A DNA stretch of 64,000 nt from Deinococcales bacterium. Its GTDB lineage: Bacteria; Deinococcota; Deinococci; Deinococcales; JAAFIG01. The DNA lies in assembly GCA_043778225.1 (NCBI GenBank), contig JAYWGM010000056.1, positions 20,594 to 84,593 of the forward strand. The letters are read 5' to 3'. Each line of letters starts with the position of its first letter. Position 1 is the first letter of the stretch. Shown piece by piece: positions 1-64,000 of the stretch. A program made the position numbers and the translations under genes. Under the pieces are notes generated by a model. The model saw only the letters and a list, made by a program, of their open reading frames with translations, was not told the DNA's origin and searched no databases.

Positions 1-135
1 AAATACCGCCAAGCCCTGCGTTTAGGTGGCACAAAGGGGTTGCGCGAATTGTTTGCTGCGGCTGGCTTAGAATTGAATTTTGACTCGAGCCACATCGCAG
101 GTCTGATGAAAATTGTTGAAGCAGCGCTCGATTAG
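1..135 (+). CDS. C-terminal end of an M3-family oligoendopeptidase (partial, runs off the window)
   Basis: Frame 1 reads [44 protein letters not shown], resembling the C-terminal LGG...ELFAAAG segment of M3 oligoendopeptidase F-like proteins. Confidence 0.6.
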
Positions 136-1124
136 TAAGCTGGAACTCGAGTTGGTTTTCTAAATTCAATATCCTCGGGTTCGCCACCAGCTTCTCGCAT
201 TTGTAAATTTGGGTTCTGAGCGCGTAAAAATTCGATAATCCCCCAGACCAAATCATCTGGTGTGCTGGCAGCACTGGTAATCCCCACAGCTTTGACACCC
301 TCGAGCCAATCGGCTTTTATATCGGCGGCACTGTCCACACGGTATGCCTCGGGAGTCAGTTCTTCTGCCAACTCAACCAAGCGCATTCCGTTAGAAGATG
401 TCAGACTCGAGACCACTAAGAACAAATCCACCTGTGGGGCAATAACTTTGACGGCAGCTTGACGGTTCTTGGTGGCATAGCAAAGGTCGCTTCTCGAGGG
501 GATGGTTAGGTTTGGGAAGCGTCTTTTGAGAATATCCACGGTTTTATCGGTGTCGTCCACGCTTAGGGTGGTTTGGGTTAGCACAATGCACTTATCAGGG
601 TCTGGTACTAGCACGGTATGTGGGTCTTGCATTTTAGAATCGGCTTTGCGGTTGCCAACAACGTTGACCAGAATTGTGTCTTCTGGAGCTTCGCCAAAAG
701 TTCCAATGATTTCTTGGTGCTGGCTCGAGTCGCCGATTAAGAGAATGCTGTATCCCATACTTGCATAACGCTTAGATTCAGAATGCACTTTAGTCACCAG
801 TGGACAAGTCGCATCCAAAGTTGTCAGACCGCGTTTATTGGCTTCCTCGCGCACTTTGGGCGAAATCCCATGAGCGCTAAAAACCACAGTTTGCCCTTGC
901 CCCTGCATCCCCTCGAGTTCGCTAAGACTTTCCACAAAACGCACACTGTGTTCTGCCTCGAGACGCTGCACCACCGTTTGATTATGGACAATCGCGTGAT
1001 AGGCGACAATATCGCCCTCACCGCTTATTTTGTTCTGTTCGGCAGCTTCTTTCAAGGCATCTATTGCCATGACCACACCGGCACAGTACCCACGCGGACG
1101 AGCCAGAATTACAGTCTCTATCAT
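132..1124 (-). CDS. ispH: 4-hydroxy-3-methylbut-2-enyl diphosphate reductase
   Basis: [48 protein letters not shown] and ASTP motifs; start set at MIETVILA, preceded by TATCCT 6 nt upstream. Confidence 0.97.
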
Positions 1125-1128
1125 GGGT

Positions 1129-2283
1129 TTAGGATAACGCGCCAACTGGGGGCAAGGTGTCTCGAGCCACATTCGCCAAAAATGCTTGAACTTGGGCGGT
1201 CAAACGCGCTGTCTCGAGCAAAAACGCATCATGACCATGAGGGCTGCTGAGTTCCCAGTATTGACCGTTTTGGACAGTTTCGGCAATTTCTCGAGCCTCG
1301 GCTGGCAAGTACAGCAAATCGCTCGAGATGCCAATACTTAACAATGGCACAGCAATCTGCTCGAGTTGGCTAGGGGAGATGTCGAATTTATCCATCGCTT
1401 TGGTAATAGAAATATAGCAGTTGGCATCAAAGCGCTCGAGTAAACGCTCGCCTTGATGCTCGAGGTACGTTTCCATCGCAAAGCGGCTTGGCTCGGTTGG
1501 ACTGGCACGGCGACCTTGGGTGAGACCAAAAGATTCTGGACTGCGAAAAAACAGGGTTGTGATGGCTCGAGCTAACGCTAAGCCCTGTGGTTGGCGGCTG
1601 TATTTACCCGCCTTAAAATCTGGGTCGTTTTGAATCGCCATTCGCGCCAAATGGTTAAACGTAATGCCCCAAGCACTATGGCGGGCTGGCGCACCAATAA
1701 TCACGGCTGCCCCAATCCGTTCTGGGAAAGCCCGTACCCATTCGAGCGCCTGCATTCCGCCCATGCTGCCGCCAATCACGGCTTCGATGCGTTGCACTCC
1801 AAGATGCTCGAGCAGTGCGGCTTGAACTTTTACCATGTCTGGAATAGTGATGTCCGGGAACTGATTGCCATAAGTGCGGTTGGTATTAGGATTGACACTG
1901 CTTGCCCCAGTGCTGCCATAGCAACCGCCCAGCACATTGGCACAAACAATAAAATTCTGGTCGGTGTCGAGCATTCGCCCAGCCCCCAAGGCTTCGGACC
2001 ACCATGAAGCCACGCTGCTCGAGCCAGTTAGGGCATGGCAAACCAGTACAGCGTTGTCTTTGCTGGCGTTGAGTTGCCCATAGGTGCTGTAAGCCACCCG
2101 CACCATTTTCAGTTCGCCGCCTAACTCGAGTTTAAGCGGTTCATGTACAAAAAGCGTGGTGTGGCGCACATCGAGGTCAGAAGGTTTTGGCTCAGGGAAC
2201 AAAACCCGAACTTCAAAGTCGCCAAGTCGTTCAATTTCAAAATTTTGTTCTGGCTTAAAAGAAACGGTCATGATGCTATCCAT
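1129..2283 (-). CDS. metX: homoserine O-acetyltransferase
   Basis: [25 protein letters not shown] nucleophile elbow, RFDAN, HGHDAFL; downstream of metY. Confidence 0.95.
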
Positions 2284-2531
2284 TCGCTACGAAAATCAAA
2301 GGCACAATACTCCAGAATCAGGTTTTCGATTTCCGACTGCAAGGCTTTTTTAAGGCTTTGATTTGAACTCAGTGCCAAGGCGCGTTGCAGGTTCTCGAGT
2401 TGCTGATGCCAGGCTTGGTTTTCTACAGCGCACTCGAGTTTGCCACGTGGAAAACGCCGCTGCTCGAGACCAGTTAAATTTTGAGTCAGCCGACGGCGTG
2501 AACCACAAGTTGGACAATCATCCTCGAGCAT
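2268..2531 (-). CDS. small hypothetical protein with CPTC motif, between metY and metX
   Basis: 87-aa ORF fills the gap exactly: starts 2 nt after the metY stop and overlaps the metX start region. Confidence 0.55.
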   Translation of the reverse strand: MLEDDCPTCGSRRRLTQNLTGLEQRRFPRGKLECAVENQAWHQQLENLQRALALSSNQSLKKALQSEIENLILEYCAFDFRSEWIAS

Positions 2532-2533
2532 TT

Positions 2534-3940
<1,407 letters not shown>

Positions 3941-5738: not shown

Positions 5739-7238
5739 TTATGGTGTCCTCAAATAACCTTTAATTTGCTCAAAACCTTTCCACAAACACGCCGCTCCTG
5801 ATGCAACCATATTTTGTGGCGCAAAAAAACCACTGTCGCTAGGAACGGCTGATGTTGGATTCTCGAGGGTTGAAAGCAGAATTTGATTGAGTCTTTTACC
5901 ATGATATTCACGGTTTGATTTGATGTTATCAACAATAATTTCTGAATACTCGTGCAGTATTAAAACAACGCAGATTTCTGGGCGCAGGTTCAATAGGTCT
6001 ACGGCAATTCCAGAAACTAGAAAATCGGCTTTACCCGTTTTGAGCATCTCGAGAATAACCGAAAGCTGTGGGTCTTTCTTCATAATTCGGTACGGGATTC
6101 GAGGTTCTTCATACTCTTCGGATTTGTCTAACACTTCCTCGAGCAATTCGCAAAAAATCCGTTTATCTATTTGCCACTCTTCTTTATTCTCTGGCAAAAG
6201 TAATTCTTGAAGCGTACATTCGCTTTGAAACATACCGGCAGGGGCAACATGAACTGAATTCGGTTGAGCTGCTACACCTTCTGCTGAGCGTGTGCCAAGG
6301 GTGCAACGGTATTGCCGGTCGGCATCTCTATAGACAAATAGCATGGCACAACCAATCGTCGCGGCTCTGCCTACGCCTTGCAAGATTTGAAGCTGCTGAT
6401 TCTGGTCAGTTCCCATTGCTATTTCTATGCGTCTTCGCTGCGGTAATTTTTTGGCGACTCGAGCAAATAAATCTGCTTCACTGCCGCCTTGACTATCAGC
6501 TACTAATTGGCTCATCAATTCCCAGCCTAAAGACTCGGAGGTGTCTAAACCTGTAAAGTAATCTGAAACATACAAGTTCATTTTCGGCGGAGTGTCCGAG
6601 TCAAGATTTTTCAGCGCAAAAGTGCATTTACTAACACCGTTGTCGAGATGATTGCTCCCGTTTTGGCGCAAGGTTTTTGAACTAGCGTAAAACCTATAGT
6701 CGTAATTTGGTAGGTGATCTTGAGCTTTATACGTTAAGTCCATCACAATCTGATTTTGAAAAAATTCTACACCCTTATCTTCAAAAGTATTGTCCGTAAA
6801 TGAACACGGATATATTTTTCCATGTGCAGTCAGAAACGTCACTCGATTGTGATAATACCAGACTAAAAACCGAAGCACCAAACCAGATGCTCGAATTTGG
6901 GTGACTTTCTCGAGTTGGACTTGGCGTTCTTGGATGGTAGCACTATTGACCTGCTTAAACTGCTCAAAGGTGTTGGCAGCCACCAGAGCTAGGCTACTAC
7001 CTGTCCAAATTTTATATCGCTCGAGTAATCCAGAAATTTCTGCTTGATTTAACTCGAGCTTTTCAAGCTGCGCCCGTCTGTTTTTTTTGATACTGCCATC
7101 GGCATACGTACCGCCATTTGGTTTTTTAACCAAGTTTGTGATTTCCCTGTCACTTTTGCCTTGACTTGACATCTCAAGGATTTCAAAAAAATGAGGCTCT
7201 AATTTCTCGAGAATTACAAATCGCTCTAAGTCGTCCAT
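5739..7238 (-). CDS. HTH plus Nudix-like domain protein
   Basis: N-terminal LuxR-like helix pattern (LEMSSQGKSDREI...IKKNRRAQLEKL); C-terminal HVAPAGMFQ...CELLEEVL...GIAVDLLNLRPEIC resembling divergent Nudix folds; AAGGAG RBS before MDDLERF. Confidence 0.6.
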   Translation of the reverse strand: MDDLERFVILEKLEPHFFEILEMSSQGKSDREITNLVKKPNGGTYADGSIKKNRRAQLEKLELNQAEISGLLERYKIWTGSSLALVAANTFEQFKQVNSATIQERQVQLEKVTQIRASGLVLRFLVWYYHNRVTFLTAHGKIYPCSFTDNTFEDKGVEFFQNQIVMDLTYKAQDHLPNYDYRFYASSKTLRQNGSNHLDNGVSKCTFALKNLDSDTPPKMNLYVSDYFTGLDTSESLGWELMSQLVADSQGGSEADLFARVAKKLPQRRRIEIAMGTDQNQQLQILQGVGRAATIGCAMLFVYRDADRQYRCTLGTRSAEGVAAQPNSVHVAPAGMFQSECTLQELLLPENKEEWQIDKRIFCELLEEVLDKSEEYEEPRIPYRIMKKDPQLSVILEMLKTGKADFLVSGIAVDLLNLRPEICVVLILHEYSEIIVDNIKSNREYHGKRLNQILLSTLENPTSAVPSDSGFFAPQNMVASGAACLWKGFEQIKGYLRTP

Positions 7239-7386
7239 AAGAATCTCCTTTTGGGTAGTTCCCACCTACCCCTGTGGGTCTGGCTTTAGTTTTGTATATC
7301 GTAAATAATCTTCCTCAGAAGCGCTTCTTGCACCACAAAAATTCAAAGTTCGTCAGCCATTACTCTTCTCATAGTCGAGGTTTTGT

Positions 7387-7656
7387 ATGAAACAGAATTC
7401 CGCTACACAGTACCAAATTTCGTTGCCAGAAAAGTTCTCTAAGACCCAGTTGAAGTTCATGACCCCCGTCGGAACTTTGGGTTTTTCAAAACCTAAATCC
7501 GAATCTCAACAAGTAGCAAAATTACAAGTGAATTGGACAGCAGTATTGGTCGTAGTTGTGATTGTTTTAGGGGCATTACTTTTACAATCAAAACCAAAAC
7601 CACAAGATAATTGGCTCAAGCCTGTGGAGGGTAGTCAAACCTGTAGTGCGTGCTAA
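7387..7656 (+). CDS. small protein with one hydrophobic segment and a C-terminal CSAC tail
   Basis: GAGG RBS; WTAVLVVVVIVLGALLL hydrophobic stretch; ends KPQDNWLKPVEGSQTCSAC. Confidence 0.6.
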   Translation: MKQNSATQYQISLPEKFSKTQLKFMTPVGTLGFSKPKSESQQVAKLQVNWTAVLVVVVIVLGALLLQSKPKPQDNWLKPVEGSQTCSAC

Positions 7657-7660
7657 GTGC

Positions 7661-7696
7661 TAAAGTTGTGGCTGTGAGGGGGCAGCCACAACTTTA
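7661..7696 (+). promoter_or_regulatory. perfect 14-bp hairpin abutting the start codon of the TPR gene
   Basis: TAAAGTTGTGGCTG-tgaggggg-CAGCCACAACTTTA; the last A is the A of the ATG at 7696. Confidence 0.7.
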
Positions 7697-9336
7697 TGGA
7701 AAATATTTCAGTGCTTATAAGGTTGATTCAAACTGCCCTACAAAACAGTGCTTTTTCACCAGCCTTACTGATTCGAGTTGAGAATTTGCATTTACAGGTC
7801 AATCAATGGCGCGATTTTTATAGCAGCATCAGCCCAATAAATGGAGTATCCCCTTTTGTACTTCGGCTTCGCTTACTTTGCAACGTTCAAGCTGCCATCT
7901 ATCCCGCACTCGAGGAATTTATCAGTGACCCAGAGGTGCAAAAATACCTTAACCAAGCAGAGCTACGCATTTTGTTGGCTCGAGGGTTTTGTACTGTCAA
8001 TAAATACCATAAAGCTGCGGTGTATCTCCAAGATATTGTTGTCCCAGATAATCCACGCTATCAGTTTTGGTATTGGAGCGCAAAGGCACTCATTTGGGTG
8101 AGTCAAAAAAATGAAAATTGTTTTGTGGCTTTTGAAAATGCAAAAACTGTTGTGACTTTGCATGAATATGGGGTGGTTTGCCTGAACCAAGGCGCAGCTT
8201 ATGAAGCCACAGGAAGACTTGTAGAAGCCGAAAACATTTGGCACGAAGCGCTCAAGCATTTAGAATTACCAAGTTTTGCGCTTGCACTTACGCATTATAA
8301 CCTCGGTGAGATGTTACTGGTGAGTCTAAACCCAGAAGCACAACATCAATTTGACTTAGCCTTAAAAATCTCGAGCCACAAAGTTGCCTTACAACTGCGT
8401 TCGACTGCATTGTGTGGACTTGGCGACTGGCAACGCTTACACGGGCATCTGCCTCAAGCCAAAGAGTTTTATCGTCGCGCATTGCTTGCAGCGCAAAAAC
8501 AAAACATCGTTAAAGACCAAATCAATGCTTTTGCAAAACTTAGTTACTTGTGCTTATTGACCAAAGATTTAGAAACTGCCCTCGAGTACCTAAAAAATGC
8601 CACTGCCCTAATTCCAGATGTCCATTCGGATACGTGGGTCTACACCATAGAAGCGCTGGTGCATTTGCGGCGGACAGATTTAGTGGCTGCCGCAAATGCA
8701 CTGACTCAAGCCATTTCGCTTGGCAATATCGCCACCCAACGGGCTAGGGTTATTCGGGCGGAACTCGAGCGACAAAAAGGCAATCCTACCCAAGCCCTAC
8801 TCGAACTCGAGAACTTAGATTTAACCAATGCTGGGGCTAGAGAAACCGTTTTGGTTTTACCCGAACTTTGGGCTTGGGCAAAAACGCAGGGAATGGATTC
8901 GCCAGAACCAATTACCGAACAAAAACGGGTTTTTAAGGTTCAAGCCCTCGACCAATTCGAGGTTTGGATGAACCAGAAAAAAATCCATCTGACCGAGCGA
9001 AGCGCCGAGCTATTGGTGTACTTGCTGCACTACAAAACCCGAAGTGCTGGCGATTTAATTTCTGAACTGTACTACGAAGAATTAACAGCAGAAATTGATT
9101 TAACGCAGCGCTTAAAATTAGTGCAGCAATGCCAAAAGAATTTTAACCATCATTTAAGGCGCTTACGCGAGGTACTGCAATGGAAAGACGTGGTCAGACT
9201 CGAGAAACGCCAGTACCATATCAATCTCGAGGATGCTATTTGGGATTTGGATTGGTTAGAACAAAGTGATCTCAAAACACGCTTCTTGCCAGCCATTCAA
9301 CGGCGTTGGATACAGGACATTGCCGAACCTTTTTAA
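7696..9336 (+). CDS. TPR-repeat protein with C-terminal SARP/OmpR-like winged-helix domain
   Basis: TPR helices (LNQGAAYEATGRLVEAENIWHEAL, ALCGLGDWQRLHGHLPQAKEFYRRAL); C-terminal KVQALDQFEVWMN...AELLVYLLHY...LISELY...HHLRRLREVL. Confidence 0.8.
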   Translation: MENISVLIRLIQTALQNSAFSPALLIRVENLHLQVNQWRDFYSSISPINGVSPFVLRLRLLCNVQAAIYPALEEFISDPEVQKYLNQAELRILLARGFCTVNKYHKAAVYLQDIVVPDNPRYQFWYWSAKALIWVSQKNENCFVAFENAKTVVTLHEYGVVCLNQGAAYEATGRLVEAENIWHEALKHLELPSFALALTHYNLGEMLLVSLNPEAQHQFDLALKISSHKVALQLRSTALCGLGDWQRLHGHLPQAKEFYRRALLAAQKQNIVKDQINAFAKLSYLCLLTKDLETALEYLKNATALIPDVHSDTWVYTIEALVHLRRTDLVAAANALTQAISLGNIATQRARVIRAELERQKGNPTQALLELENLDLTNAGARETVLVLPELWAWAKTQGMDSPEPITEQKRVFKVQALDQFEVWMNQKKIHLTERSAELLVYLLHYKTRSAGDLISELYYEELTAEIDLTQRLKLVQQCQKNFNHHLRRLREVLQWKDVVRLEKRQYHINLEDAIWDLDWLEQSDLKTRFLPAIQRRWIQDIAEPF

Positions 9337-9418
9337 CTTAGGTATAACTTTTGTGCCACTGGGATTTTAGGGGCTTTGTTAGGCTTGGTCTCGAGCCATA
9401 GGGCAACCGAGGTGAAGT

Positions 9419-10777
9419 ATGGCTTGGATGGTCGTGAATTGGTCGGAATTCATGACCGTCCAAATGGGAGGCAGTGTGTTGAATCTCGAGATACGCCCAA
9501 ACACCATTTACTTAAACCAGCAACCGTTGCTACTGACCCAGCCATGGCTCGAGCTTCTACAACTGGCAGCCCTGCACACCCTCGAGTCACCCCCAGACCT
9601 AACCCCGCTTGATGTCCAACAACTCCCCAGTTGGCGTGCTAAATCTGTTGAAGTGATTAAATCCAGCCTGTCTCGAGAACACAAAAAATGGGTCAGACTA
9701 TACGGCGTATCGTTTCTAACTGGACAACTCGGTAAAGCCTTTAGGCTAAATCCAGAATTAACCCCAGTGCTGACTGAATCTGTTGCGGCACTCCAAGAAA
9801 AACTGCGCCCAAAAAGCAATTTACTGGCAAAACTCGAGAACCCAGAAGCCGAAGTCCAAGCCAACCTGATGCTGGCAAAACTGAGTATCGAAAATGGTTT
9901 ACTCGAGAAAGCCTTGGTTGCAATCCAAAACGCCCTCAATGCCAACGCCAGCCCAGTGTTAAAACAAGAAGCCTTATTTTATCAAGCTCGAGTCTACGAA
10001 TTTAGAAGTGAATTTACCGTAGCGCACCAAAGCCTACAGCGCTTAAAAAAGTGCCTCGAATGGCACGAAAAAAACAATTCGCCCAGCCACCCTCGAGCCA
10101 AGGCATGGTTTCAGATTGGAACAGCCCGAATTTATTTGCGCCAAGCCCAGTGGCAAGAAGCCAAAAGCGCCTACTTAGCAGCCAAAAAATACCTCGAGCC
10201 ACACCATTACCGTGAATTGGGGATGGTTTTTAATGGGCTTGGCAGGGTTGCTCAGAACACCACCCATCTGGATGTTGCCCAAAAACACTACGAACAAGCG
10301 CTCGAGTTTTACCACCGTGCCGAGTGGACTTGGGCGGTTCAAGCCACGCTCAACGATTGCGGCGTGGTCTACAAGGAGCGTTGCAAGCTAATCTGGAAGC
10401 GCCAAAATCACCAAGCCCAGAAGCACCTCGAGCAAGCCTTTAGGTACTTTACGCTCTGCCAGCAAAATTGCGAAGCTGCCCAGACGGGCGATGAAAGTGC
10501 GGTACTCGAGATTAACCTTGGCTGGTGCTACCGAATGTTTGAACAATTTGACCTTGCCCGCCAGTGGCTTGAGAAAGCCGTGCAGTTGGCAACAAAAGCC
10601 CGCAATTTATCGGATTTGGGCTGGGCGTATATGGAATACGCCGAACTCGAGTTGGTGACCAATGGCAAGCTGGCGGCGGCAGAAATGTACAGCCGTGCTT
10701 GTGGTGCGTTTGAAGATGGGCAGATTGATTCGGCTCGAGACTTGGCTAAATACAAACTTGAGGAGATGCTGAGGTGA
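9419..10777 (+). CDS. TPR-repeat protein with putative N-terminal winged-helix domain
   Basis: Multiple TPRs (VFNGLGRVAQ...AQKHYEQAL, NLGWCYRMFEQFDLARQWLEKA); N-terminal IYLNQQPLLLT...IKSSLSR; start could alternatively be the GTG at 9476. Confidence 0.75.
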   Translation: MAWMVVNWSEFMTVQMGGSVLNLEIRPNTIYLNQQPLLLTQPWLELLQLAALHTLESPPDLTPLDVQQLPSWRAKSVEVIKSSLSREHKKWVRLYGVSFLTGQLGKAFRLNPELTPVLTESVAALQEKLRPKSNLLAKLENPEAEVQANLMLAKLSIENGLLEKALVAIQNALNANASPVLKQEALFYQARVYEFRSEFTVAHQSLQRLKKCLEWHEKNNSPSHPRAKAWFQIGTARIYLRQAQWQEAKSAYLAAKKYLEPHHYRELGMVFNGLGRVAQNTTHLDVAQKHYEQALEFYHRAEWTWAVQATLNDCGVVYKERCKLIWKRQNHQAQKHLEQAFRYFTLCQQNCEAAQTGDESAVLEINLGWCYRMFEQFDLARQWLEKAVQLATKARNLSDLGWAYMEYAELELVTNGKLAAAEMYSRACGAFEDGQIDSARDLAKYKLEEMLR

Positions 10778-10857
10778 AGCTAACCGCCATACTCGAGATT
10801 GGCGATAGCACTGGCAAGCTTGAGCCAAAATAGTCACACTTTGCATTATCAGGAGGT

Positions 10858-10917
10858 TTATGTACTCGGACGGTTCACCCGCACCAGTGGAATATTTTCG
10901 TTGGCGTATAAGTTCAC
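10858..10917 (-). pseudogene. internally deleted DUF5615/PIN-like toxin remnant
   Basis: A GTG overlapping the DUF433 stop reads MNLYANENIPLVRVNRPST*, i.e. the typical DUF5615 N-terminus (LYANENxPL) joined to its typical C-terminus (LxRVNRP). Confidence 0.65.
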
Positions 10918-11240
10918 GCTGCCTCGTTGAGAATAATGTCTTGTTCAATTTGTTCTTTGTGCATGGCTGCAAATGCCCAAGTGTTGGTCAAATCCTCGGC
11001 TCGCAAACTTGGGTAATCGCGCAACAAATCTGCTTCGGACGCACCAGCCCGACGCAGGGCAACCAGCAACCAAACAGGAACTCGAGTCCGAACCACACAA
11101 ACCTCACCGCCGTTGATATTTGGGCGTTCTTCGATGCCAGCGTAAGCACCTTGCCAGTCTTTTGTGACCCATTGCAGCACAAGGGCTTTCTCGGCAGGAC
11201 TGAGCCTAAAAATTAGGTTTTGCATTTCTTGTAACGACAT
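10914..11240 (-). CDS. DUF433 family antitoxin-like protein
   Basis: IEERPNINGGEVCVVRTRVPVWLLV...GASEADLLRDYPSLRAEDL signature. Confidence 0.9.
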   Translation of the reverse strand: MSLQEMQNLIFRLSPAEKALVLQWVTKDWQGAYAGIEERPNINGGEVCVVRTRVPVWLLVALRRAGASEADLLRDYPSLRAEDLTNTWAFAAMHKEQIEQDIILNEAA

Positions 11241-11460
11241 GACTAGGAGGGTAAACGCCTTGGCTTTGAATGTCAAGAAGTGGCGTTTTTTTAAGAGGAA
11301 GTAAGGCAGTTGGTCAGTGGTACACCATCTCGAGGAGATGCTGAGATGAATGTTACCACCTGAGGCAAGCAAAAATCAGAGGTTTTATAAAGTTGTTACT
11401 GAATAAAAGTGCAATCTGTGCGTATTGTGGGAAAATACCGAGGAATCGAAAGGGGAGTAT

Positions 11461-14400
11461 ATGAACAAATGGTTTATTGGCATTGGTTTAAGTCTGGCAT
11501 TGGTGGCGTGTCCAGCCGTACCAACGATTGAGAGTGTCAAAATAAAATCTGCGTTCAATACAGTTGCGGCTACCGAAACTACCAATTTGGCTATTGAAGT
11601 AAAGGGTTCAGGTGCTTTTGATGCTCGAGTAGACTGGAGTATCGTTCCAAGTCTTGGAAGTGTTACCGCCCAAAGCGAAACCCAAGCCATATACACTGCA
11701 CCACTTGTCTCGAGTGACACCAACATCGTTATTCGTGCCACCTCAAAACTCGATCCAAGTAAATTCGGTGAAACTACCATTCAAATAAAAGCACCAACAA
11801 TTACTAGCCTTACTGCAACACCAAGCAAAACAACCCTCGAGAGTGAAGAAACCACTTCTATCAGTGCAAAACTCGAGGGAACAGGTGCATTCAATACAGA
11901 TGTACTCTGGTCAGTTGTGTCTGGTGGAGGTAGTTTATCAAGTGGCACAGGTAATCCAGTTAATTACACATCCCCAAAAGTTGGAGTAGATACAGATGTG
12001 GTACTGCAAGCCACTGCCGTAGGTGACAACAGCAAAAAACAGAATGTATCGCTAAAAGTTTTAACAGCTAAAATTATAACTGGAATCACCTTAGAGGCAA
12101 CCCCACGCTCAATCCCATCAGCAACAGGAACAAGCAATATCACAGCAACAGTCAATGGTACAGGCGCAATTCTAAATGCGGTGACATGGGAAATCGTTAG
12201 TGGTGGCGGAAACCTCATTAACCCGACAGATACCAATGTAACCTACACAGCACCCACTGTTTCGGTAGATACCATCGTGACCATCAAAGCCACCAGCAAA
12301 GCTAACCCCAGCCAGAGTGCCACAATTACCCTGAGTGTGGTCATTCCGCCAGTGGTTTCTGGTATCAACTTGACCGCAACACCAAACAGTATTGTTGCCA
12401 CTACAGGCGTGAGTACCATCAGTTCGACAATTATTGGCTCTGGTTCGATTCAAAATGCAGTGACATGGGAAATCGTTAGCGGTGGCGGAACACTCAGCAA
12501 TGCCACAGATACCAGCGTGACTTTTACTGCTCCAAATGTGACCGTAGAAACCATTGTTACCATTAGAGCCACCAGCAAAACTGACTCGAGTAAAACAGCC
12601 ACAACCACCATTACAGTCACAATCCCAACGGTGGTCTCCGGTATTACCCTAAGTGCAACAGCCCGTACCATTGCATCCGGAACGGGTAGCAGCACCATCA
12701 GTGCAGTAATAACGGGTTCTGGCACATTCCAGAACGCAGTGACATGGGAGATTGCCAGTGGTGGCGGAACACTTAGCAATTCTACAGATACCAGCGTGAC
12801 CTACACTGCACCCAGCATTGTTCAAGACACCATTGCGACCTTAAAAGCCACCAGTAAAACCGACTTGAGCAAAACCGACACGATAAGTTTAATTGTGATC
12901 GCACCAACTGTAGTAAATAGTGTCCAAGTGACTTCTACCCCAAGCATTATTAAGTCAAATGCCACAACAACCCTGAGTGCCGTTATCAGTGGCACAGGCA
13001 ACCCAAATCCAAATGCCAAATGGGAAATTGTAAGTGGTGGTGGGGCGCTCAGTTCAGTATCAGGTGCAAGTGTGACCTATGCGCCAGCCGTGGTGACTAC
13101 AGACACTAACGTGGTAATTAAAGCCACCTCGAGCGACGATGCCAGCAAGTCCGCCAGCAAAACCGTGGTGGTTGAACCTATTCCAACAATTACTGGGATT
13201 AGTGTTTCGATGCCATTTACCACCGTTCAAGCAAATGGCAGTATTGCTTTAGGTGCGAGTATCACTGGTTATGGGAATCCTGATTTAAGTGTCAAATGGA
13301 GTGTTGTAGGCAATCAAGGCACGTTGACCAATACAACAGGTGCCGCTACAACCTTGAACGCCCCAAATGTAACCGCTCAAACCAAAATTCAAATCAAAGC
13401 TGAAAGTGTCCAGGACTCGAGTAAATCCACCTTGACAGAAATAACAATCAATCCCAAACCACCCATCGAAGTGATTACAACCCCAGCCAGTGTTAGTGTT
13501 AATGCTACCCAAGCAGTAGCGATAAGCGCAGTCGTGAATTACGCTCAAAATGCAAGCGTGGCTTGGACAAGTTCGATAGGAATACTTACACCAAATGGTA
13601 ACTCTGCGATATGGAAAGCCCCAAATGTTTTGGTGGATACAACAGCCACCATTACAGCCACTTCTATAGAGGACTCGAGCAAAAAAACAACCATCAGTGT
13701 CAACATTAAAGCGGCTGTCATTGAGGTTTATGCACTACCATTGCATCCAGCTTACAACGATGCGGGTTTTAACTTTGGAACTGGGGTGAGTCCAGCCAGT
13801 ATTGCTGTAGCGTATGGTATTCATTTTCACTTGGCGGCTCGAGCCAATGGCGAAAGTATAGGTGGTACATGGGCTGTTGGAAACGCTGGAATTGTTCAAC
13901 TAATGTCTACAAACACAACCAATGGCTCGGCAAACGTAGCACGATTTGTTGGTAGAGGTATTGGTCAAAGTAGCACCGTTACATTTACAGCACCAGGTGG
14001 TCAACAACGACAAATTCAAGCCAATATTGGAGCAATAGAACCCAAGCGACTACCAACCGCCTGTGCCAATGGCGATGGTGGTTATGTTGCCATTCGTCCA
14101 GATGGACGATACGTTATCAGTGGTAACCTCAATGGTTTAGGACTGCCCAATATTTCGGGAGTGGTTTCCGAAACAATACTTGGTTCAGCTACATCCAGAA
14201 CTTTGCGCGGTTGTATTACAGGCATCAACACCATTACCTTATTAACAACTGACCCAAGTGTTTCTTATACATCGGGGGAATTCAACTTAACAGGCAGTAA
14301 CTTACAAGCCCTGACTGAAACGAGACACTGTCCTATTCTGAGCGTCCAACAAAAATACTATACAGGTCATTTGGTATGTCAAGATCGTACTGGTTTGGCA

Positions 14401-16629
14401 TGGGGTGCAAATTACAATGGTCAATTTGGAGCAGATTTACCACTGGATGGTACAAAACGAGCCTTGCGTTCAAATGGCGGAAGTGGCTTTGCTTGGATTA
14501 CAACCACCGAACAATACTCGGTTGGGATGCAATGGAATGGTGCAGCTTGGGCAACAGGTAACTGGTTTCATAACTGGGCGGACAACGGCGGTACGGGCGA
14601 TAGTCGAAACTGGGAATATGTACCTGTTCTTAATAGCATGGTTTCGTGTGATATAGACAATGAATTAACCGTTTGCATACCTCCAGAACGAACCCAACTG
14701 ATTATTCATGGAGTTGGCACAAGTGGCAACCGCACAGGAAAATTACACTACCGCCCCGAAGCCTTTGCAATTCCGACAGGAGAAATTGCCGTTGCGGTAG
14801 CCGTTGGTCAAGAAAGTATATTGCTGCTGACAGAAACTGGTGTTTACCGCCGTGGGGTACTGGGTATTTCACCAACCCAACCATCTTGCGGATGCTGGGA
14901 ACGGGTCAGCAACATTACTGGAACACCTGTAGAAATAGCAGCTACAAAAGCGTGGTACATCATCAAAACCACAGATGGCGCATACCGAAATACCAACGGA
15001 AATTCGGGATTCATGCCAATGAATGCTGTAAACCCAGATGCAACTTTTGTGGTCGAACCACCTAGCGTTAATTTACTTCAACGTGTGATGAGTGTTGCCC
15101 AAATAAGTTTAGCGGGATTTAGCAACAACGAATTTTACGTTGCCTCGCAAGACTCGAGTGTTGAAACCGAAATTGGAAATTGGATCAATGGCAAAAGAGA
15201 ACTGCGCCTTCACTGTACCAAATCAGGCGTGAGTACCAACGTGATTATCACCCATAAAATCTTCCCGAATATCACAAAAGCCATACCTGTAACCTGCACA
15301 GGCAATCAAAATCCACGAATTGTTCGTTTTTACGAACGCAATAACAACATAAACCCTAAGCCGTGGGACAGCCTAAAACTACAATGGCAAATTGAAGAAC
15401 CCGAAGGTCAATCCATGACTTGTAAACTTGACTTGGATGGTAATGGAACTTGGGATCATACTCAAAGTAATTGCAATGACAGTCTGGATTACTCCCATGT
15501 TTGGAACAACACACAATCAGGAGCGCAAAACATTAAATTGCGAGTTGAAGACACCTATGGCGGGGCAGCAGAAGTTTATCTGGGTTTCACAGTTCAATCC
15601 ACCAATAAAGCCCCTGTAATCTCGAGTTTCACTGTTACCCCCTCGAGTGGTACAGCGCCAATAACCGTAACCTATAACTGGTCTGTCTCCGACCCAGACA
15701 ACGACCCAACAACTTGTCAGTTAGATACCAATGGCGATGGCACATATGAGTATTCTTACCCCTGCTCGAGCCGTAATTCGCAAACGCACACGTTTAACAA
15801 TAATGGCAGTTACACCTCGAGAATCCGCGTGACAGATGGGCGCGGCGGGGAATTCAGTGCTTCTCGAGTGGTGAGTTTATCAGAGGCTATAGTCCCTCAG
15901 CCATTAAACGTGATTTTTGATGCGTCTGGTTTATCTGGACTTATTTCAATAAATGTACAAACATCAGATCAATCTGCAACGTGCATACTTTTTATCGCAG
16001 TACCGTACCAAAAAAGAATAGTTCCATGCAATACTTCTGATTACATAATTGAAGTTGACGCAAGATCGTATGACTTAGCGCTTAGTATTTATAATAGTAC
16101 ATCAAGTAAAATAGTGGTTAAGAACGTTAATGTCACAACCTCTCAGCAGGAAGAATTCTCGGCAACTCAAAATATGCCGCTTGTCAATCTAGGCGTTCCA
16201 GAGAATATAGACTTAAACAAACTTTCAATCTGCTTATCGAAAAGCTTTTTTCTTGAACTTATAGAATCTTTGCTCTTAGTTCAAGAAATAAAAACAGGAC
16301 GTTCGTATGATTTTCAAAATTACTCTTCACAAATCTTAGCTGCGGCAGCAGAAAGTCCATCTGCGCTTGATCAAGCCTATTTGGATATTATCAAAGAAAT
16401 AGGCTTCGATTTTGCTGTTTCAGAAACCAAACTCAAAATCCTTGATTTACGAACTGGTGCCGCTAAATTAGCCGCCGGAAAGCTATTGAATTATAATACA
16501 TTCACTAAATGGGGAAGAAACGCATTTAGATCAGTCGGTCCAACGCTACGTGTGGGTGCTGGTAAAATTTTTATTGGAATTACGGTAGTAAAAGTTTCAT
16601 TTGAAGCTGGAAGATGCTACGCATCTTAA
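11461..16629 (+). CDS. very large surface lipoprotein with Ig-like repeats, an RCC1-like middle region and PKD domains
   Basis: GGGGAG RBS; lipobox LVAC; about 8 Thr/Ser-rich ~93-aa repeats (VTWEIVSGGG...YTAP...ATSK); WGANYNGQFG; two CxLDxxGxGT PKD-like modules. Confidence 0.85.
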   Translation: MNKWFIGIGLSLALVACPAVPTIESVKIKSAFNTVAATETTNLAIEVKGSGAFDARVDWSIVPSLGSVTAQSETQAIYTAPLVSSDTNIVIRATSKLDPSKFGETTIQIKAPTITSLTATPSKTTLESEETTSISAKLEGTGAFNTDVLWSVVSGGGSLSSGTGNPVNYTSPKVGVDTDVVLQATAVGDNSKKQNVSLKVLTAKIITGITLEATPRSIPSATGTSNITATVNGTGAILNAVTWEIVSGGGNLINPTDTNVTYTAPTVSVDTIVTIKATSKANPSQSATITLSVVIPPVVSGINLTATPNSIVATTGVSTISSTIIGSGSIQNAVTWEIVSGGGTLSNATDTSVTFTAPNVTVETIVTIRATSKTDSSKTATTTITVTIPTVVSGITLSATARTIASGTGSSTISAVITGSGTFQNAVTWEIASGGGTLSNSTDTSVTYTAPSIVQDTIATLKATSKTDLSKTDTISLIVIAPTVVNSVQVTSTPSIIKSNATTTLSAVISGTGNPNPNAKWEIVSGGGALSSVSGASVTYAPAVVTTDTNVVIKATSSDDASKSASKTVVVEPIPTITGISVSMPFTTVQANGSIALGASITGYGNPDLSVKWSVVGNQGTLTNTTGAATTLNAPNVTAQTKIQIKAESVQDSSKSTLTEITINPKPPIEVITTPASVSVNATQAVAISAVVNYAQNASVAWTSSIGILTPNGNSAIWKAPNVLVDTTATITATSIEDSSKKTTISVNIKAAVIEVYALPLHPAYNDAGFNFGTGVSPASIAVAYGIHFHLAARANGESIGGTWAVGNAGIVQLMSTNTTNGSANVARFVGRGIGQSSTVTFTAPGGQQRQIQANIGAIEPKRLPTACANGDGGYVAIRPDGRYVISGNLNGLGLPNISGVVSETILGSATSRTLRGCITGINTITLLTTDPSVSYTSGEFNLTGSNLQALTETRHCPILSVQQKYYTGHLVCQDRTGLAWGANYNGQFGADLPLDGTKRALRSNGGSGFAWITTTEQYSVGMQWNGAAWATGNWFHNWADNGGTGDSRNWEYVPVLNSMVSCDIDNELTVCIPPERTQLIIHGVGTSGNRTGKLHYRPEAFAIPTGEIAVAVAVGQESILLLTETGVYRRGVLGISPTQPSCGCWERVSNITGTPVEIAATKAWYIIKTTDGAYRNTNGNSGFMPMNAVNPDATFVVEPPSVNLLQRVMSVAQISLAGFSNNEFYVASQDSSVETEIGNWINGKRELRLHCTKSGVSTNVIITHKIFPNITKAIPVTCTGNQNPRIVRFYERNNNINPKPWDSLKLQWQIEEPEGQSMTCKLDLDGNGTWDHTQSNCNDSLDYSHVWNNTQSGAQNIKLRVEDTYGGAAEVYLGFTVQSTNKAPVISSFTVTPSSGTAPITVTYNWSVSDPDNDPTTCQLDTNGDGTYEYSYPCSSRNSQTHTFNNNGSYTSRIRVTDGRGGEFSASRVVSLSEAIVPQPLNVIFDASGLSGLISINVQTSDQSATCILFIAVPYQKRIVPCNTSDYIIEVDARSYDLALSIYNSTSSKIVVKNVNVTTSQQEEFSATQNMPLVNLGVPENIDLNKLSICLSKSFFLELIESLLLVQEIKTGRSYDFQNYSSQILAAAAESPSALDQAYLDIIKEIGFDFAVSETKLKILDLRTGAAKLAAGKLLNYNTFTKWGRNAFRSVGPTLRVGAGKIFIGITVVKVSFEAGRCYAS
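11870..13170 (+). repeat. intragenic tandem repeats with ~279-nt period
   Basis: GTGACATGGGA...GGTGGCGGAA recurs at 12181, 12460 and 12739, with degenerate copies on either side. Confidence 0.85.
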
Positions 16630-16662
16630 ATCAAATACTTTGAGCCAATGCTTGAGAGGCGT

Positions 16663-16686
16663 AGGGCGTTTAAAATTCGCCCTTTT
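16663..16686 (+). terminator. putative terminator after the lipoprotein gene
   Basis: AGGGCG-tttaaaatt-CGCCCT followed by TTT. Confidence 0.4.
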
Positions 16687-16763
16687 ACATTCCCACTAGC
16701 ACGCATCCCTCGAGACTGCCAAACCGCCTAGGCTTATGCACTCGGCTCAACGGAGATTAAAAA

Positions 16764-17054: not shown

Positions 17055-17120
17055 ACTATCGGCTCGAGTTTCTACATGGCTTTGGCTCGAGCCACGGCGG
17101 TTACGTTGTATACTGGTTTC

Positions 17121-47169: not shown

Positions 47170-47357
47170 GGGCAAGGGTTAAAAGGTTAAAAGCGACCAT
47201 GCCCGATAGGTGCGTGTTTATGGTCAAGAAGGGCAAAAGCGACCCAGCCCGTCAGCGATTCCGCCCGTCAGGTGCGTGTATGGAATCAAGACAGGTGCAT
47301 CTTTAGGGTCAAGAAGGTTAAAAGTACGCCTTTATTTTAGCTACTCGAGGAACGTTT

Positions 47358-48053: not shown

Positions 48054-48062
48054 AGGCACATC

Positions 48063-49139
48063 ATGAACACCGATTTTTACCAAACCGTTCTGAGCCTAAA
48101 AAACGCTGGCTCGAGCTTTGTGACCGCCACAGTCGTCTCGAGACGTGCGCCAGTTTCGTCGCATTTGGGCGATAAAGCGATTATTTTTGCCTCTGGACAG
48201 ATGCAGGGTTTTGTGGGTGGTTCGTGCAGCCGAGAAATCGTGCGAAAACAGGCGCTTGAGGCATTGCAAACGGGTAAGCCGAGGTTGGTACTGATTCGTC
48301 CAGATGCGACGCTCGAGACTTTGCAACACGCTTTTGATGCGGAAGGAATCGTTGTTCCTATGACCTGTGCGTCCGAAGGTGCAGTGGATGTCTACCTCGA
48401 GCCGCACAGTCCTGCGCCGCTTTTGTTGGTGGCTGGGTTTACACCTGTGGCACAAGCTGTGGCAAAAATGGCGGTTTTACTCGAGTACAACATTGTGCGA
48501 ATCGTGACCCAAGCCGAACTGCGTGACCTCGAGCCAAATAGTGCCATCGCCCTGTCTGAATTACCTGCCTTCCTCGAGCAACTTTCGGTTCAGACTCGAA
48601 CCACCTTATCAGCCGTGGTTGCGACCCAAGGGCATTACGACGAACCAGTTCTCGAGGCGCTGCTGTTGGCGGGTGTTGGTTTTGTCTCGCTGCTCGCCAG
48701 TCGTAAACGAGCCGTAACCGTGCGCGAACTGCTCGAGTTACAAGGCGTACCGCTCGAGTTAGTCAATCAAATACAAAATCCTGCGGGACTGGACATCAAC
48801 GCCAAAACCCCAGCCGAAGTGGCGGTCAGTATCCTTGCCCAAATCATCAAAGCCCGAGACTCGAGCCAAGCCATGTTTACCAACTCGAGTCAATATCAGG
48901 GTTTTCGTAGGGGCGACGGAGCTTCCAGCGACGGGGGTAGCGACGGGGGTAGCGACGGGGGCAGCAACCGAAGTGAGAATTCACGTTTTGCGATTTCACC
49001 CGTGGATGGCGAACGTATCGAAATTGCGTCGGCGGTTCATTTTGCGGATTACCACGGTCTGACGTATTATTTTACTTGCGCCAATTGCAAACGCCGTTTT
49101 CTCAAAGACCCACAGAGTTTTCTGTCGGTGACTGCATGA
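48063..49139 (+). CDS. XdhC/CoxF-type Moco chaperone fused to a YHS domain
   Basis: GFVGGSC, MTCASEGAVDVYLEP, ATQGHYD, ASRKR, PAGLDI...PAEVAVSILA; C-terminal PVDG...YYFTCANCKRRF. Confidence 0.88.
   Translation: MNTDFYQTVLSLKNAGSSFVTATVVSRRAPVSSHLGDKAIIFASGQMQGFVGGSCSREIVRKQALEALQTGKPRLVLIRPDATLETLQHAFDAEGIVVPMTCASEGAVDVYLEPHSPAPLLLVAGFTPVAQAVAKMAVLLEYNIVRIVTQAELRDLEPNSAIALSELPAFLEQLSVQTRTTLSAVVATQGHYDEPVLEALLLAGVGFVSLLASRKRAVTVRELLELQGVPLELVNQIQNPAGLDINAKTPAEVAVSILAQIIKARDSSQAMFTNSSQYQGFRRGDGASSDGGSDGGSDGGSNRSENSRFAISPVDGERIEIASAVHFADYHGLTYYFTCANCKRRFLKDPQSFLSVTA
48928..48963 (+). repeat. 12-nt in-frame tandem repeat (SDGG x3)
   Basis: AGCGACGGGGG(T/C) x3 in the XdhC-YHS linker. Confidence 0.85.
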
Positions 49140-62509: not shown

Positions 62510-62635
62510 AGTTTTGTCCTTTTGTTTATCCAATTAGCAAATGGCTTGGGCTTAGTCAGGGCAAGGGCGACCACAAGCAGTTCTGCCTGTGAGGTGCGTG
62601 TTTTGAATCAAGACGGGTTGCTCCTACAGTTGGGT

Positions 62636-63532
62636 TTAGGTTCTTTGGTTGGTTTGGGTGCTAAAGGTGCTTTCAAAAATCTTGTCAGCATTGCCTGCTT
62701 CAAAACCTTCTCGACGGTGTTGGCGCTTAATTTGGGTTGGCTCGAGGTGCATAAATTGCGGTAGCACACGGCGTTCGGCAAATTCAATATACGAACCAGA
62801 AATACGTTTTGTTTCGCCGCTCGAGAACTCCACATCAATCATTTCGGCAACGGTGCTGGATTGCAATAAAAATCCGTCGGGGCTTTGTTTGACTTCGCCG
62901 CCTGCATTGTTGAGCTTCAAGCCGTGCTTTTTAAGAAATTCGTTAAAACCTAGGCAAGTATTGTGTGGCGCTGGCAGGTTATGCACTGAGACCGTGAAAT
63001 GATTGAGGTAATAGCGGTTATAAATCACCCAAGCGGCATATTCGGATTCGGCTTGGAGGGTTTCGTAATCCTCGAGCGTCGGCAATTGCCATAAGGGGCT
63101 GTGCAAAAAAGTATCCACCGCTAGACCATTGTCTAAGTCTAGGTCGTCTACAGGGTCGCTTGGCACTTGGTTGGTGTAACGGGTAACAATTTGCTGCGCC
63201 TCGAGACTCAAGTCTGCGACTCGCAATTCGGAAACAAAAATTCTTGGGTATTTTGGGTCGGGTGGGCTGTACCAAAAAGCATCGAGTTTTTTGTGCTTAA
63301 AGGCATAAGCCTCGCGGCGCTCAAAACCATAATGTAAAAAAATCTTTTCAAACGATTTCATGCCCAGTTGCGGTACGCCCATGGTTCTAAAAGCAATGTG
63401 GTCATTTTCGATTTCGGTGACACTCGAGATTAACTTTTCTTGGGTCATTGCCGAGATGACTTTCTGCACATCAGGCACTCTTGTTTGGTAACGGCGCATC
63501 AAACCAGCCAGCACTATTTCTAACGCATTCAT
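62636..63532 (-). CDS. DUF1338 family protein (HglS-like 2-oxoadipate dioxygenase/decarboxylase)
   Basis: ENDHIAFRT, RIFVSEL, ESEYAAW, NHFTVSV, LLQSST, YIEFAER, GFEAGNADKIFEST. Confidence 0.85.
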   Translation of the reverse strand: MNALEIVLAGLMRRYQTRVPDVQKVISAMTQEKLISSVTEIENDHIAFRTMGVPQLGMKSFEKIFLHYGFERREAYAFKHKKLDAFWYSPPDPKYPRIFVSELRVADLSLEAQQIVTRYTNQVPSDPVDDLDLDNGLAVDTFLHSPLWQLPTLEDYETLQAESEYAAWVIYNRYYLNHFTVSVHNLPAPHNTCLGFNEFLKKHGLKLNNAGGEVKQSPDGFLLQSSTVAEMIDVEFSSGETKRISGSYIEFAERRVLPQFMHLEPTQIKRQHRREGFEAGNADKIFESTFSTQTNQRT

Positions 63533-63589
63533 TTTACACCTCTTATGCCTAGATTACTCGAGATAGGCGCTAGTGGTCAAAGTTAAAAC

Positions 63590-63904
63590 TTAACTCGAAG
63601 CATAAAGCCGAATTGGAAGGTGCTTTTGGTACAATATAAAGTCTTGGTCTTTGGTCAGAATGGCGACGTTCCACTCGAGCGCACAAGCACAAATCAGACA
63701 ATCAGTATTTGAGGATTGTATGCCTTTTGAGCGCAGTAAATTAAAAATTGCGGCGGCATTTTCAAAAACACTTGTTTGAATAAGACGACCTGGAAAGAAC
63801 CGTAGAAAGGTGCGAAAACCAACAAAACGATCAATTTCTCGTAAGCCTGAAAGGATTTCTTGGCGAATCTCGCCGAGCATTTCGACTTGTCCCGCCCGAA
63901 TCAG
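63590..63904 (-). pseudogene. vapC: vapC PIN toxin, 5'-truncated by an IS insertion
   Basis: LIRAGQVEMLGEIRQEILSG...TDCLICACA...ILTKDQDF present; the N-terminal DT motif is missing and the frame runs into an IS end. Confidence 0.75.
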
Positions 63905-64000
63905 TAGGGCAAACGCACCAACTATGCCTTGCCTGATAAACCAAGTAACGATAGCAAGTAATCATCATGTAATAACGCCTTCAAACGTTTCCGTCGCTTA
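63905..64000 (-). mobile_element. right end of a probable ISAs1-family insertion sequence (partial)
   Basis: Minus-strand frame KRRKRLKALLHDDYLLSLLGLSGKA* (63922-63999) resembles ISAs1 transposase C-termini; followed by GGTGCGTTTGCCCTA, similar to ISAs1 terminal inverted repeats. Confidence 0.65.

Follow-up and report, generated by a model that had tools for sequence, protein, structure and literature searches.

The function of highly iterated palindromes (HIPs) such as HIP1 (GCGATCGC) of cyanobacteria has been open for three decades, and these words have been studied in one phylum. DNA uptake sequences (DUS) of Neisseria and uptake signal sequences (USS) of the Pasteurellaceae are non-palindromic words of 9-12 bases that occur about once per kb and are taken up through a receptor that is known or inferred. 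In Escherichia coli, a repair bias at a methyltransferase target, the effect of Vsr and Dcm on CCWGG, shifts oligonucleotide abundance in a small and base-specific manner. As for HIP1 itself, its methylated form is reported to raise natural transformation of Synechococcus PCC 7002 more than 100-fold, outside any restriction system (bioRxiv 10.1101/2024.09.10.611283), its abundance is described as correlating with DNA-transfer genes, and it has been proposed to serve as an uptake sequence (PMC13756078). Here we analysed a 64,000-base stretch of the genome of an uncultured Deinococcus relative in the phylum Deinococcota (hereafter the window; G000:C56:20594-84593, with G000 denoting the source assembly), in which a preliminary description had singled out the palindrome CTCGAG as hyper-abundant and HIP1-like. 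We find CTCGAG to be a HIP of the HIP1 kind in a second phylum, i.e., old, word-specific and acting on DNA. Such a second case, which differs in the word and, in relatives, in the chemistry of its methylation, lets a general explanation of HIPs be tested.

Methylation of CTCGAG is on record for several organisms. N6-methyladenine (m6A) enzymes of this specificity, for which no cognate restriction enzyme is listed, are known from Meiothermus ruber (M.Mru1279II; 99.5% of sites), M. chliarophilus (M.Mch9957IV; 94.1%) and Marinithermus hydrothermalis (M.Mhy14884I; 94.6%; Blow 2016, S3 Table), the last being annotated in IMG as an Eco57I-family protein (Blow 2016, S5). 5-Methylcytosine (m5C) within the same word has been found in Halorubrum (PMC8112702) as well as in R. 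palustris and Nocardia, in rows that list V. proteins (Blow 2016 S3), and an orphan CTCGAG methylase in Nocardia has been linked to clusters of its motif at the origin of replication (Blow 2016). The main text of Blow 2016 mentions none of Meiothermus, Thermus, Truepera or 'Deinococc-' and does not report the abundance of the word; 'Deinococc-' is also absent from Elhai 2015 and from the 2026 Genome Biology and Evolution paper. We found no published report of CTCGAG abundance; the supplements of PMC13756078, PMC5861425 and the bioRxiv preprint may hold palindrome surveys beyond cyanobacteria.

CTCGAG in the window and in its genome

The source assembly comprises 4,029,277 bases in 107 contigs at 48.7% GC, with a completeness of 89%. 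Within the window (positions 1-64000), CTCGAG occurs 384 times (~6 per kb), in genes of both strands and between genes, as compared to 8.0 copies expected from dinucleotide-preserving shuffles (sd 2.65, maximum 15; 0 of 100 shuffles reached 384). Across the whole assembly, 24,877 copies correspond to one per 162 bp, or 26.7x the zero-order expectation. Every listed contig carries 4-11 sites per kb, and CTCGAG ranks first among all hexamers by a factor of ~3, the runners-up being overlaps of CTCGAG itself. The observed-to-expected ratio (O/E) under a maximal-order Markov model was discarded as uninformative, because the sub-words of CTCGAG are themselves dominated by the motif. The hyper-abundance first noticed in the window was thus borne out, including its details: the initial 2 kb, said to hold at least 17 copies, contain exactly 17 sites (bases 1-2000), and the triple said to lie within ~35 nt consists of sites at 26341, 26352 and 26371, that is, three copies within 36 bases (26341-26376) in the 5′ part of an open reading frame (ORF) for a UPF0176/rhodanese protein (25630-26412, minus strand).

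The excess extends well beyond coding context. Taking 3,262 long, non-overlapping ORFs (87% of the genome) as a proxy for genes, CTCGAG density was 6.17 per kb in coding and 6.19 per kb in non-coding DNA, and the word occupied all three reading frames, as had been claimed (12,782 sites as CTC-GAG, 4,358 as xCT-CGA-Gxx and 4,496 as xxC-TCG-AGx). Upon shuffling synonymous codons within genes, which retains both the protein and the codon usage, an excess of 7.9x, 11.7x and 14.1x remained in the three frames. Even over a first-order codon (dicodon) expectation, each term of which already holds five of the six bases of CTCGAG, the off-frame excess was still 1.65x and 2.07x. Away from the word, CTC accounts for 9% of Leu codons and GAG for 23% of Glu codons; 69% of Leu-Glu pairs are spelled CTCGAG, versus 2% expected. 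The density is high enough to rewrite proteins: Leu-Glu is the top over-used dipeptide of the G000 proteome (O/E 2.33; 18,532 pairs, ~10,000 of them extra), and 36% of all CGA and 29% of all TCG codons reside inside CTCGAG. Codon-pair odds ratios of 43 and 22 translate into a population-scaled bias S of ~3-4 per site.

Codon or amino-acid bias does have a basis in high-GC relatives, which prefer CTC and GAG, so that CTCGAG as well as its reverse, GAGCTC, is frequent (in high-GC Trueperaceae, 1.57x and 1.13x relative to the codon-preserving null). In G000, however, with its lower GC content and its sparing use of CTC and GAG outside the word, GAGCTC is confined to 24 sites, and the CTCGAG excess persists under every null and is as high in non-coding as in coding DNA. 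An artefact of assembly or library fits no better: the trait is seen in 18 of 80 named loci, and the nearest named records are metagenome-assembled genomes (MAGs) labelled 'Deinococcales bacterium' from many independent projects (one of them in a record titled a 5.09 Mb chromosome), which argues against an assembly artefact. These records also bear out the phylum, Deinococcota, suspected in the preliminary description. We regard both explanations as refuted. Since the codon and dicodon nulls and the spelling of Leu-Glu pairs show an excess beyond coding, the initial view that codon bias alone is insufficient stands; the excess neither vanished upon shuffling, nor was it limited to the Leu-Glu frame, nor did it trace to an artefact. 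CTCGAG reflects, with high confidence, a real, word-specific and long-maintained bias at the DNA level.

The iterated word is the bare hexamer, as the bases flanking CTCGAG are near random, with a mild shortage of C before and of G after it. Spacing between sites is near exponential (mean 161, median 117, coefficient of variation 1.0) and shows a 3-base periodicity from the preferred frame; beyond this codon effect, there was no quasi-periodic spacing of CTCGAG in G000 of the kind reported for HIP1. A spacing of 6 never occurs in G000 because it would generate GAGCTC. As a separate observation, two sites parted by a single base (CTCGAG-N-CTCGAG, spacing 7) are over-represented (123 cases, of which 97 are coding; the middle base is uniform) and spacings 8-14 are depleted; the over-representation could point to a reader favouring neighbouring sites. 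CTCGAG density stays level around the starts and ends of genes. Origin-like clusters were absent from G000: the densest accumulation amounts to 11 sites per 400 bp, most such clusters are coding, and two non-coding clusters represent short ORFs and a tandem repeat. Outside the window, just downstream of a gene, a six-copy tandem repeat with a unit of ~24 bases and one CTCGAG per unit (G000:C51:80540-80690) is among the densest clusters of the genome.

These features bear on a per-site cellular function under weak direct selection, in which CTCGAG would act as a binding or marking site, be it in nucleoid organisation or for a SeqA-like reader of hemimethylated sites that times replication or segregation, and selection would keep its density high and even. 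Equal density in coding and non-coding DNA and the even scatter implied by near-exponential spacing would suit such a role, and the Nocardia methylase tied to origin clusters offers a parallel. The lack of phasing beyond the codon effect, of origin-like clusters and of any density change at gene starts and ends speaks against it.

Among the one-off neighbours of CTCGAG, those of the transition type are found at an O/E of 1.2-1.4 and those of the transversion type at 0.15-0.95, the commonest being the T-variants TTCGAG and CTTGAG. This runs counter to Vsr-type very-short-patch repair, which together with a cytosine methylase would convert T:G to C:G in near-cognate sites and so manufacture CTCGAG, as for CCWGG in E. 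coli: these two variants should then be the rarest, not the commonest.

Finally, site-free gaps of at least 1.5 kb number 19 in G000, compared with 2.4 expected, and 12 of the 19 have a GC content of 0.39 or below (genome, 0.487). Imported DNA is devoid of CTCGAG, the word being acquired with residence. In hyper-abundant genomes, absence of CTCGAG hence flags imported DNA.

Conservation of sites and spread across the phylum

Five same-genus genomes with 77-82% identity (tree (((G001,G003,G005),G000),G006,G007)) keep 63-76% of the G000 CTCGAG sites at the orthologous position, versus 23-35% of control hexamers. Across four other genera of the family, which are far GC-richer (54-62% in the fetched DNA), 32-60% of sites are kept versus 13-17% of controls; of 36 G000 sites aligned in all four genera, 26 are common to at least one genus and eight to all four. 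In a neighbouring family, a single one of 15 sites is shared with G000 (control 0.09). At conserved amino acids, Leu-CTC is retained in 74-84% of cases within CTCGAG versus 26-50% elsewhere, and Glu-GAG in 83-91% versus 39-69%, with four-fold sites overall being 43-56% identical. CTCGAG sites are thus old, being common to five genera and protected at synonymous positions in the word. Positional conservation over genera is what direct selection on each site predicts, but biased transmission predicts the same, and these data do not separate the two.

On the youngest branches, all six positions of CTCGAG, T and A included, evolve 2-5x slower than matched background. That T and A, which lie beyond the reach of Vsr-type repair, are protected as well as C and G is a second argument against that mechanism. 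The faster change of the inner C is in line with a CpG effect of 1.6x seen throughout the genome, and a motif-specific m5C signature was rejected since the excess of C-to-T changes at this base (9 of 20 tip losses) mirrors that effect. When G001, G003 and G005 are aligned to the window, changes from C to T on the youngest branches amount to 0.032 per site at CpG versus 0.020 at other cytosines (1.6x), which would fit some CpG-overlapping cytosine methylation unrelated to CTCGAG.

Protection of every position is also what a methyl-directed mismatch-repair ratchet (Elhai 2015) would entail, in which the methylated word marks the parental strand and repair favours the intact site, protecting old sites and fixing new ones. 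Yet a 2-5x protection alone yields a 2-5x excess, not one of 27x. 

With respect to turnover, losses outnumbered gains under parsimony on the G000 branch (22:5), the stem of the clade (27:5) and its tips (20:4), the ratios for control words being 30:141 and 39:68. A net decay of CTCGAG in the genus was nevertheless withdrawn as a conclusion: in an outgroup-free count over a trio of close genomes, a site was present in three, two or one of them at 75, 18 and 10 positions, respectively, and the resulting two-to-one ratio of 1.8 is close to the 2.0 predicted by a stationary two-state model at 85% occupancy. With rapid regain at the same position, a distant outgroup makes parallel regains resemble losses. 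A design based on agreement of three lineages returned loss of 46 of 246 CTCGAG sites versus 103 of 387 controls that are biased to constrained positions (odds ratio 0.63, P 0.027), and with only 12 stable neighbours had no power for gains. Recombination is pervasive in the three closest genomes (91-93% identical), where the majority tree is contradicted by 382 of 684 informative sites, clustered in short tracts. Six of the ten CTCGAG sites held by one trio genome lie where it differs from the other two at three or more bases, as expected of imported tracts.

The comparison with other Deinococcota that the preliminary description had proposed revealed a graded excess and a depletion in Deinococcus. 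Within the family of G000, all 13 sampled genomes (5 genera) carry 4.3-6.8 CTCGAG per kb, with GAGCTC nearly absent in most, and the ten family genomes in the phylum sample gave the same tally of CTCGAG density. Over the phylum, density grades from 4-7 sites per kb in this family to 1.5-3.5 per kb in Trueperaceae and Meiothermus-like genomes, Deinococcus being depleted. Among the 80 named loci, the codon-preserving excess reached 6.7x in the hyper-abundant group, 6.5x in low-GC Trueperaceae MAGs (in all frames; non-coding equal to coding density, ~1.5 per kb) and 3.4x in Meiothermus/Thermaceae (off-frames 4-8x; non-coding 2.1 per kb); Deinococcus loci stood at 0.45x of the null, with one site in 50 kb of non-coding DNA. 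CTCGAG was the top palindrome in four of six groups of these loci. Whole-genome counts in 301 genomes (including G259, on which no claim rests) agree with the gradient, and the 100 genomes of one genus inferred to be Deinococcus (g7) have 26-1,010 sites each.

The family that holds this genus (f3) also contains G247 with 24,536 sites in 3.5 Mb (7.0 per kb), G190 with 13,562 in 3.8 Mb and G191 with 683 in 2.3 Mb. G247 and G191 bear the same genus label and, in sampled DNA, the same GC content (0.50), and have a CTCGAG O/E of 28 and 1.1, respectively. That a same-genus relative manages without the excess is a further point against a per-site cellular function, and we hold direct selection to be unlikely overall. 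In ispH, four of ten CTCGAG sites are shared with the second hyper-abundant lineage, that of G247; this is one gene, and the agreement may be convergence at Leu-Glu positions.

Most other 6-bp palindromes have been purged from G000. Out of 64 palindromic hexamers, 24 have an O/E below 0.03 and 34 below 0.1; among the 4,032 non-palindromic hexamers, 54 fall below 0.03, with GGCC (O/E 0.009) present in most of those listed. AGGCCT, GACGTC and GGGCCC are down to one site each in 4 Mb, and the purge includes, next to GAGCTC, the NTCGAN′ palindromes TTCGAA (34 sites), GTCGAC (49) and ATCGAT (224). AAATTT, CAATTG, AGCGCT and TTGCAA are ~2x enriched. Leftover sites of purged palindromes are scattered through native DNA; their origin as imports was rejected, with only 5.5% of them in CTCGAG-poor DNA versus 2.5% of random positions. 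The purge is equally strong in G247 and absent in G191 (25 of 63 versus 2 of 63 other palindromes).

Methyltransferases and maintenance of the word

A DNA-level bias keeps CTCGAG and has built it up in the past wherever the sequence tolerates it. As the mechanism, we tentatively put forward, by analogy with HIP1 and cultured relatives, a methylation-marked word that is favoured in DNA exchange, a reading we place somewhat short of probable. As in cultured Meiothermus and Marinithermus, an adenine methyltransferase that has no restriction partner would act on CTCGAG, and DNA with the methylated word would be favoured in homologous exchange, that is, in natural transformation, recombination and heteroduplex repair. 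Alleles with the word would then spread and alleles losing it would be removed, a biased-transmission drive comparable to a population-scaled advantage of about 3-4 per site. Besides the two analogies, the difference in methyltransferase matches between G247 and G191 (below), the short conflicting tracts in the closest genomes and the import-like setting of six of the ten single-genome sites speak for this reading. A recombination-heavy, restriction-rich lifestyle may also have purged most of the other 6-bp palindromes.

Besides the flagging of imported DNA by its absence, two circumstances make the trait tractable. Its gradient reaches cultured, transformable genera with published CTCGAG methylases, and G247 and G191 contrast simultaneously in CTCGAG, palindrome purging and methyltransferases: matches in G247 comprise five C5, two N4/N6 and seven gamma-class enzymes, and G191 (95% complete, 5 contigs) has no matches in the same three families. 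G247 also holds counterparts, at 52-63% identity, of three C5 enzymes of G000's genus that the other family genera are without.

G000 itself has ~18 DNA methyltransferase genes, including five full-length C5 enzymes, whose specificity is not readable from sequence. Several of them were considered and dismissed as a family-wide CTCGAG methylase: the TaqI-like L013 is present in only 3 of 13 family genomes, L007 in seven of eight genomes of the genus and in none of the other genera, and neither L010, L002 and L003 nor L008 with its neighbour is family-wide. L016 turned out not to be related to the long gamma-class proteins of G190, G009 and G011, the ~500-aa gamma-class methyltransferase frames falling into several unrelated clusters. 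A search for an XhoI-type endonuclease (PF04555) gave no match in G000, which proves little as the 14 control genomes had none either.

A number of observations weigh against exchange of a methylation-marked word. None of seven methyltransferases traced over 21 relatives of G000 is family-wide. The sole Eco57I-family gene of the f4 genome G019 (447 aa, M.TaqI architecture), used as a proxy for the published CTCGAG methylases, has no ortholog in G000 and groups with Thermus-like genomes only; its best full-length match is L013, at 20% identity and with the patchy distribution given above. CTCGAG methylation is known for the cultured relatives and extends to G000's family only by analogy. The proposed link to an orphan methyltransferase is accordingly supported for Meiothermus and Marinithermus, which methylate the word without a listed restriction enzyme, with no family-wide enzyme among the seven traced for G000. 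One-off neighbours did not gain the word at a raised rate (1 of 40 versus 0.027 in controls), though at low power and with the remaining neighbours probably constrained, and recombination breakpoints were not enriched at CTCGAG (16 of 29 versus 14.8 ± 2.2 expected), again at low power. G247 and G191 share only 65-72% DNA identity in few alignable pieces and differ in many respects besides methyltransferases. Deinococcus avoids palindromes and CTCGAG alike, so that palindrome purging alone does not entail a rise of CTCGAG. Lastly, ComEC was found in all five genomes searched, including the motif-free G191, and competence therefore does not discriminate.

Repair bias, also raised by the preliminary description, found no support in its simple Vsr and MutH forms. 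For Vsr, the five full-length C5 enzymes of G000 and the natural occurrence of m5C in CTCGAG (Halorubrum, R. palustris, Nocardia) would supply the methylase. However, the Vsr family (PF03852) was detected in none of the 21 relatives, all 13 family genomes among them, by a search whose controls matched in E. coli, B. subtilis and Caulobacter. Together with the protection of all six positions, the abundant T-variants and an inner-C excess that merely follows the CpG effect, this effectively refutes Vsr-type repair for G000's family. Elsewhere, in G190, the sole C5 methyltransferase (L239) is followed by an overlapping Vsr gene and a SNF2/ResIII helicase, forming a dcm-vsr-like module (G190:C11:82462-86457).

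The mismatch-repair ratchet is better placed, if still improbable. Orphan methylases for CTCGAG exist in cultured relatives, and clear protection combined with an unraised gain rate is what a protect-only mechanism would give. Against it, the MutH family (PF02976) was matched in only 2 of 13 family genomes (G003, G005) and not in G000, with E. coli as a matching control, and the Elhai model is, as published, built on a G-m5C signal and saturates near one site per 1,000 bases (PMC4390886), far from the density seen here.

A true uptake sequence of the DUS/USS type, in which a surface receptor prefers CTCGAG DNA and uptake bias plus recombination spread the word, appears similarly improbable. 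Pervasive recombination, the presence of ComEC and imported DNA without the word would fit, and uptake sequences, too, distort proteomes. Known uptake sequences are, however, far longer than a palindromic 6-mer, CTCGAG is about six times denser than the figures for Neisseria and Haemophilus, and Thermus is not known to prefer particular sequences in DNA uptake. The equal presence of ComEC in G191 is again no help to this explanation, for which the recent proposal that HIP1 is an uptake sequence provides a precedent (PMC13756078).

If a methylation-marked word is indeed favoured in exchange, it is conceivable, albeit doubtful, that CTCGAG in Deinococcota and HIP1 in cyanobacteria are independent inventions of one principle: a restriction-less methyltransferase would turn a palindrome into a 'kin mark' read by the machinery of DNA exchange and repair, and in recombining populations the mark would drive itself to saturation while palindromes cut by restriction are purged. 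The phylum would then offer every stage, from avoidance in Deinococcus through a mild excess in Meiothermus and Marinithermus to saturation in two uncultured lineages, plus G191, in which the word, the avoidance of palindromes and every DNA methyltransferase were lost or never present; comparative genomics could thus reveal what reads the mark. In practical terms, such words skew statistics on codon usage, dipeptides and k-mers, and could have an effect on how these MAGs are binned and their genes called.

Further features of the window and comparison with known systems

A Cys/Met-metabolism gene (2534-3886; pyridoxal-phosphate enzyme, Pfam) is preceded by a GC-rich inverted repeat with a subsequent T-run (3893-3932, minus strand), terminator-like as read from the unfolded sequence and with CTCGAG (3915-3920) at its centre. 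Upstream of both, a full-length but sub-threshold match to the S-adenosylmethionine (SAM)-I riboswitch (RF00162; 3953-4167, minus strand; 33.3 bits versus a gathering score of 44.4, E 2e-5; Rfam) spans 215 bases for a 108-position model and probably holds an insertion in one helix; at the gathering score, Rfam had no match in the window. The reported occurrence of CTCGAG in non-coding hairpins is thus supported in part, for the SAM terminator, by the terminator-like repeat, the riboswitch to which it was assigned being sub-threshold.

The longest CTCGAG-free stretch of the window (13838-15153; 1,315 bp) lies inside an ORF of 1,734 aa (11425-16629) that matches no Pfam family and carries 2.9 sites per kb versus 6.2 genome-wide. 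This ORF is one of four large ones (508, 546, 452 and 1,734 aa; three without a Pfam match, one with TPR repeats only) in a 12.5 kb segment (5739-18300; GC 0.448; 4.9 CTCGAG per kb) for which the five same-genus genomes have no orthologous DNA. The gene for the replicative helicase DnaB (18598-21180, minus strand) is interrupted by an intein that bears a LAGLIDADG homing-endonuclease domain (Pfam: DnaB, DnaB_C, Intein_splicing, LAGLIDADG_3); in DNA searches, matches in the five same-genus genomes cover only parts of the gene. Thirty-four bases at 40229-40262 match, with 100% identity and in four successive registers, a tandem array of 25-base period on contig C429 of G007, a genome of the same genus. 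A dispersed repeat of ~43 bases that resembles repetitive extragenic palindromic (REP) elements and is devoid of CTCGAG occupies 47191-47233, within the intergenic region 46643-48063; it has ~23 copies in G000 (up to six substitutions), several at contig ends, and many in all five same-genus genomes.

Set beside known systems, CTCGAG shares with the Vsr/Dcm effect on CCWGG the notion of a bias at a methyltransferase target, and differs from it in that Vsr is missing from the relatives searched and all six positions are protected. To DNA uptake sequences (Neisseria DUS, Pasteurellaceae USS) it is akin as a short word spread genome-wide, coding DNA included, which in their case is through a transmission bias tied to transformation. 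The orphan N6-adenine methyltransferases of cultured Deinococcota target the same word in the same phylum, and the Meiothermus loci show the milder excess; an ortholog, sought through the Eco57I-family proxy from G019, was not found in G000. 

The likeness to HIP1 that had prompted the preliminary description holds on the descriptive features tested: hyper-abundance, occurrence in all frames and in non-coding DNA, an excess beyond codon nulls, conserved sites and scarcity in imported DNA. Both palindromes are, by the published accounts of HIP1, 15-300x over-represented genome-wide in genes and spacers (PMC5861425; PMC4390886; PMC13756078), conserved beyond background, scarce in imported DNA and, for CTCGAG by way of its cultured relatives, nested around a methyltransferase target. 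They differ in phylum and length, CTCGAG being a hexamer and HIP1 an octamer; in spacing, which is exponential for CTCGAG and reported as quasi-periodic for HIP1; in methylation, the published modification of CTCGAG in relatives being m6A and that of HIP1 m5C; and in density, with CTCGAG far exceeding the saturation of HIP1 in Elhai's model (PMC4390886). The alternate HIPs described for exceptional cyanobacteria (GrCGyC, rCCGGy, GCsGC) indicate that the iterated word varies by lineage along with a methyltransferase of matching specificity (PMC4390886). Those words, however, are replacements within one phylum, whereas CTCGAG is graded over several families of its own and avoided in Deinococcus.

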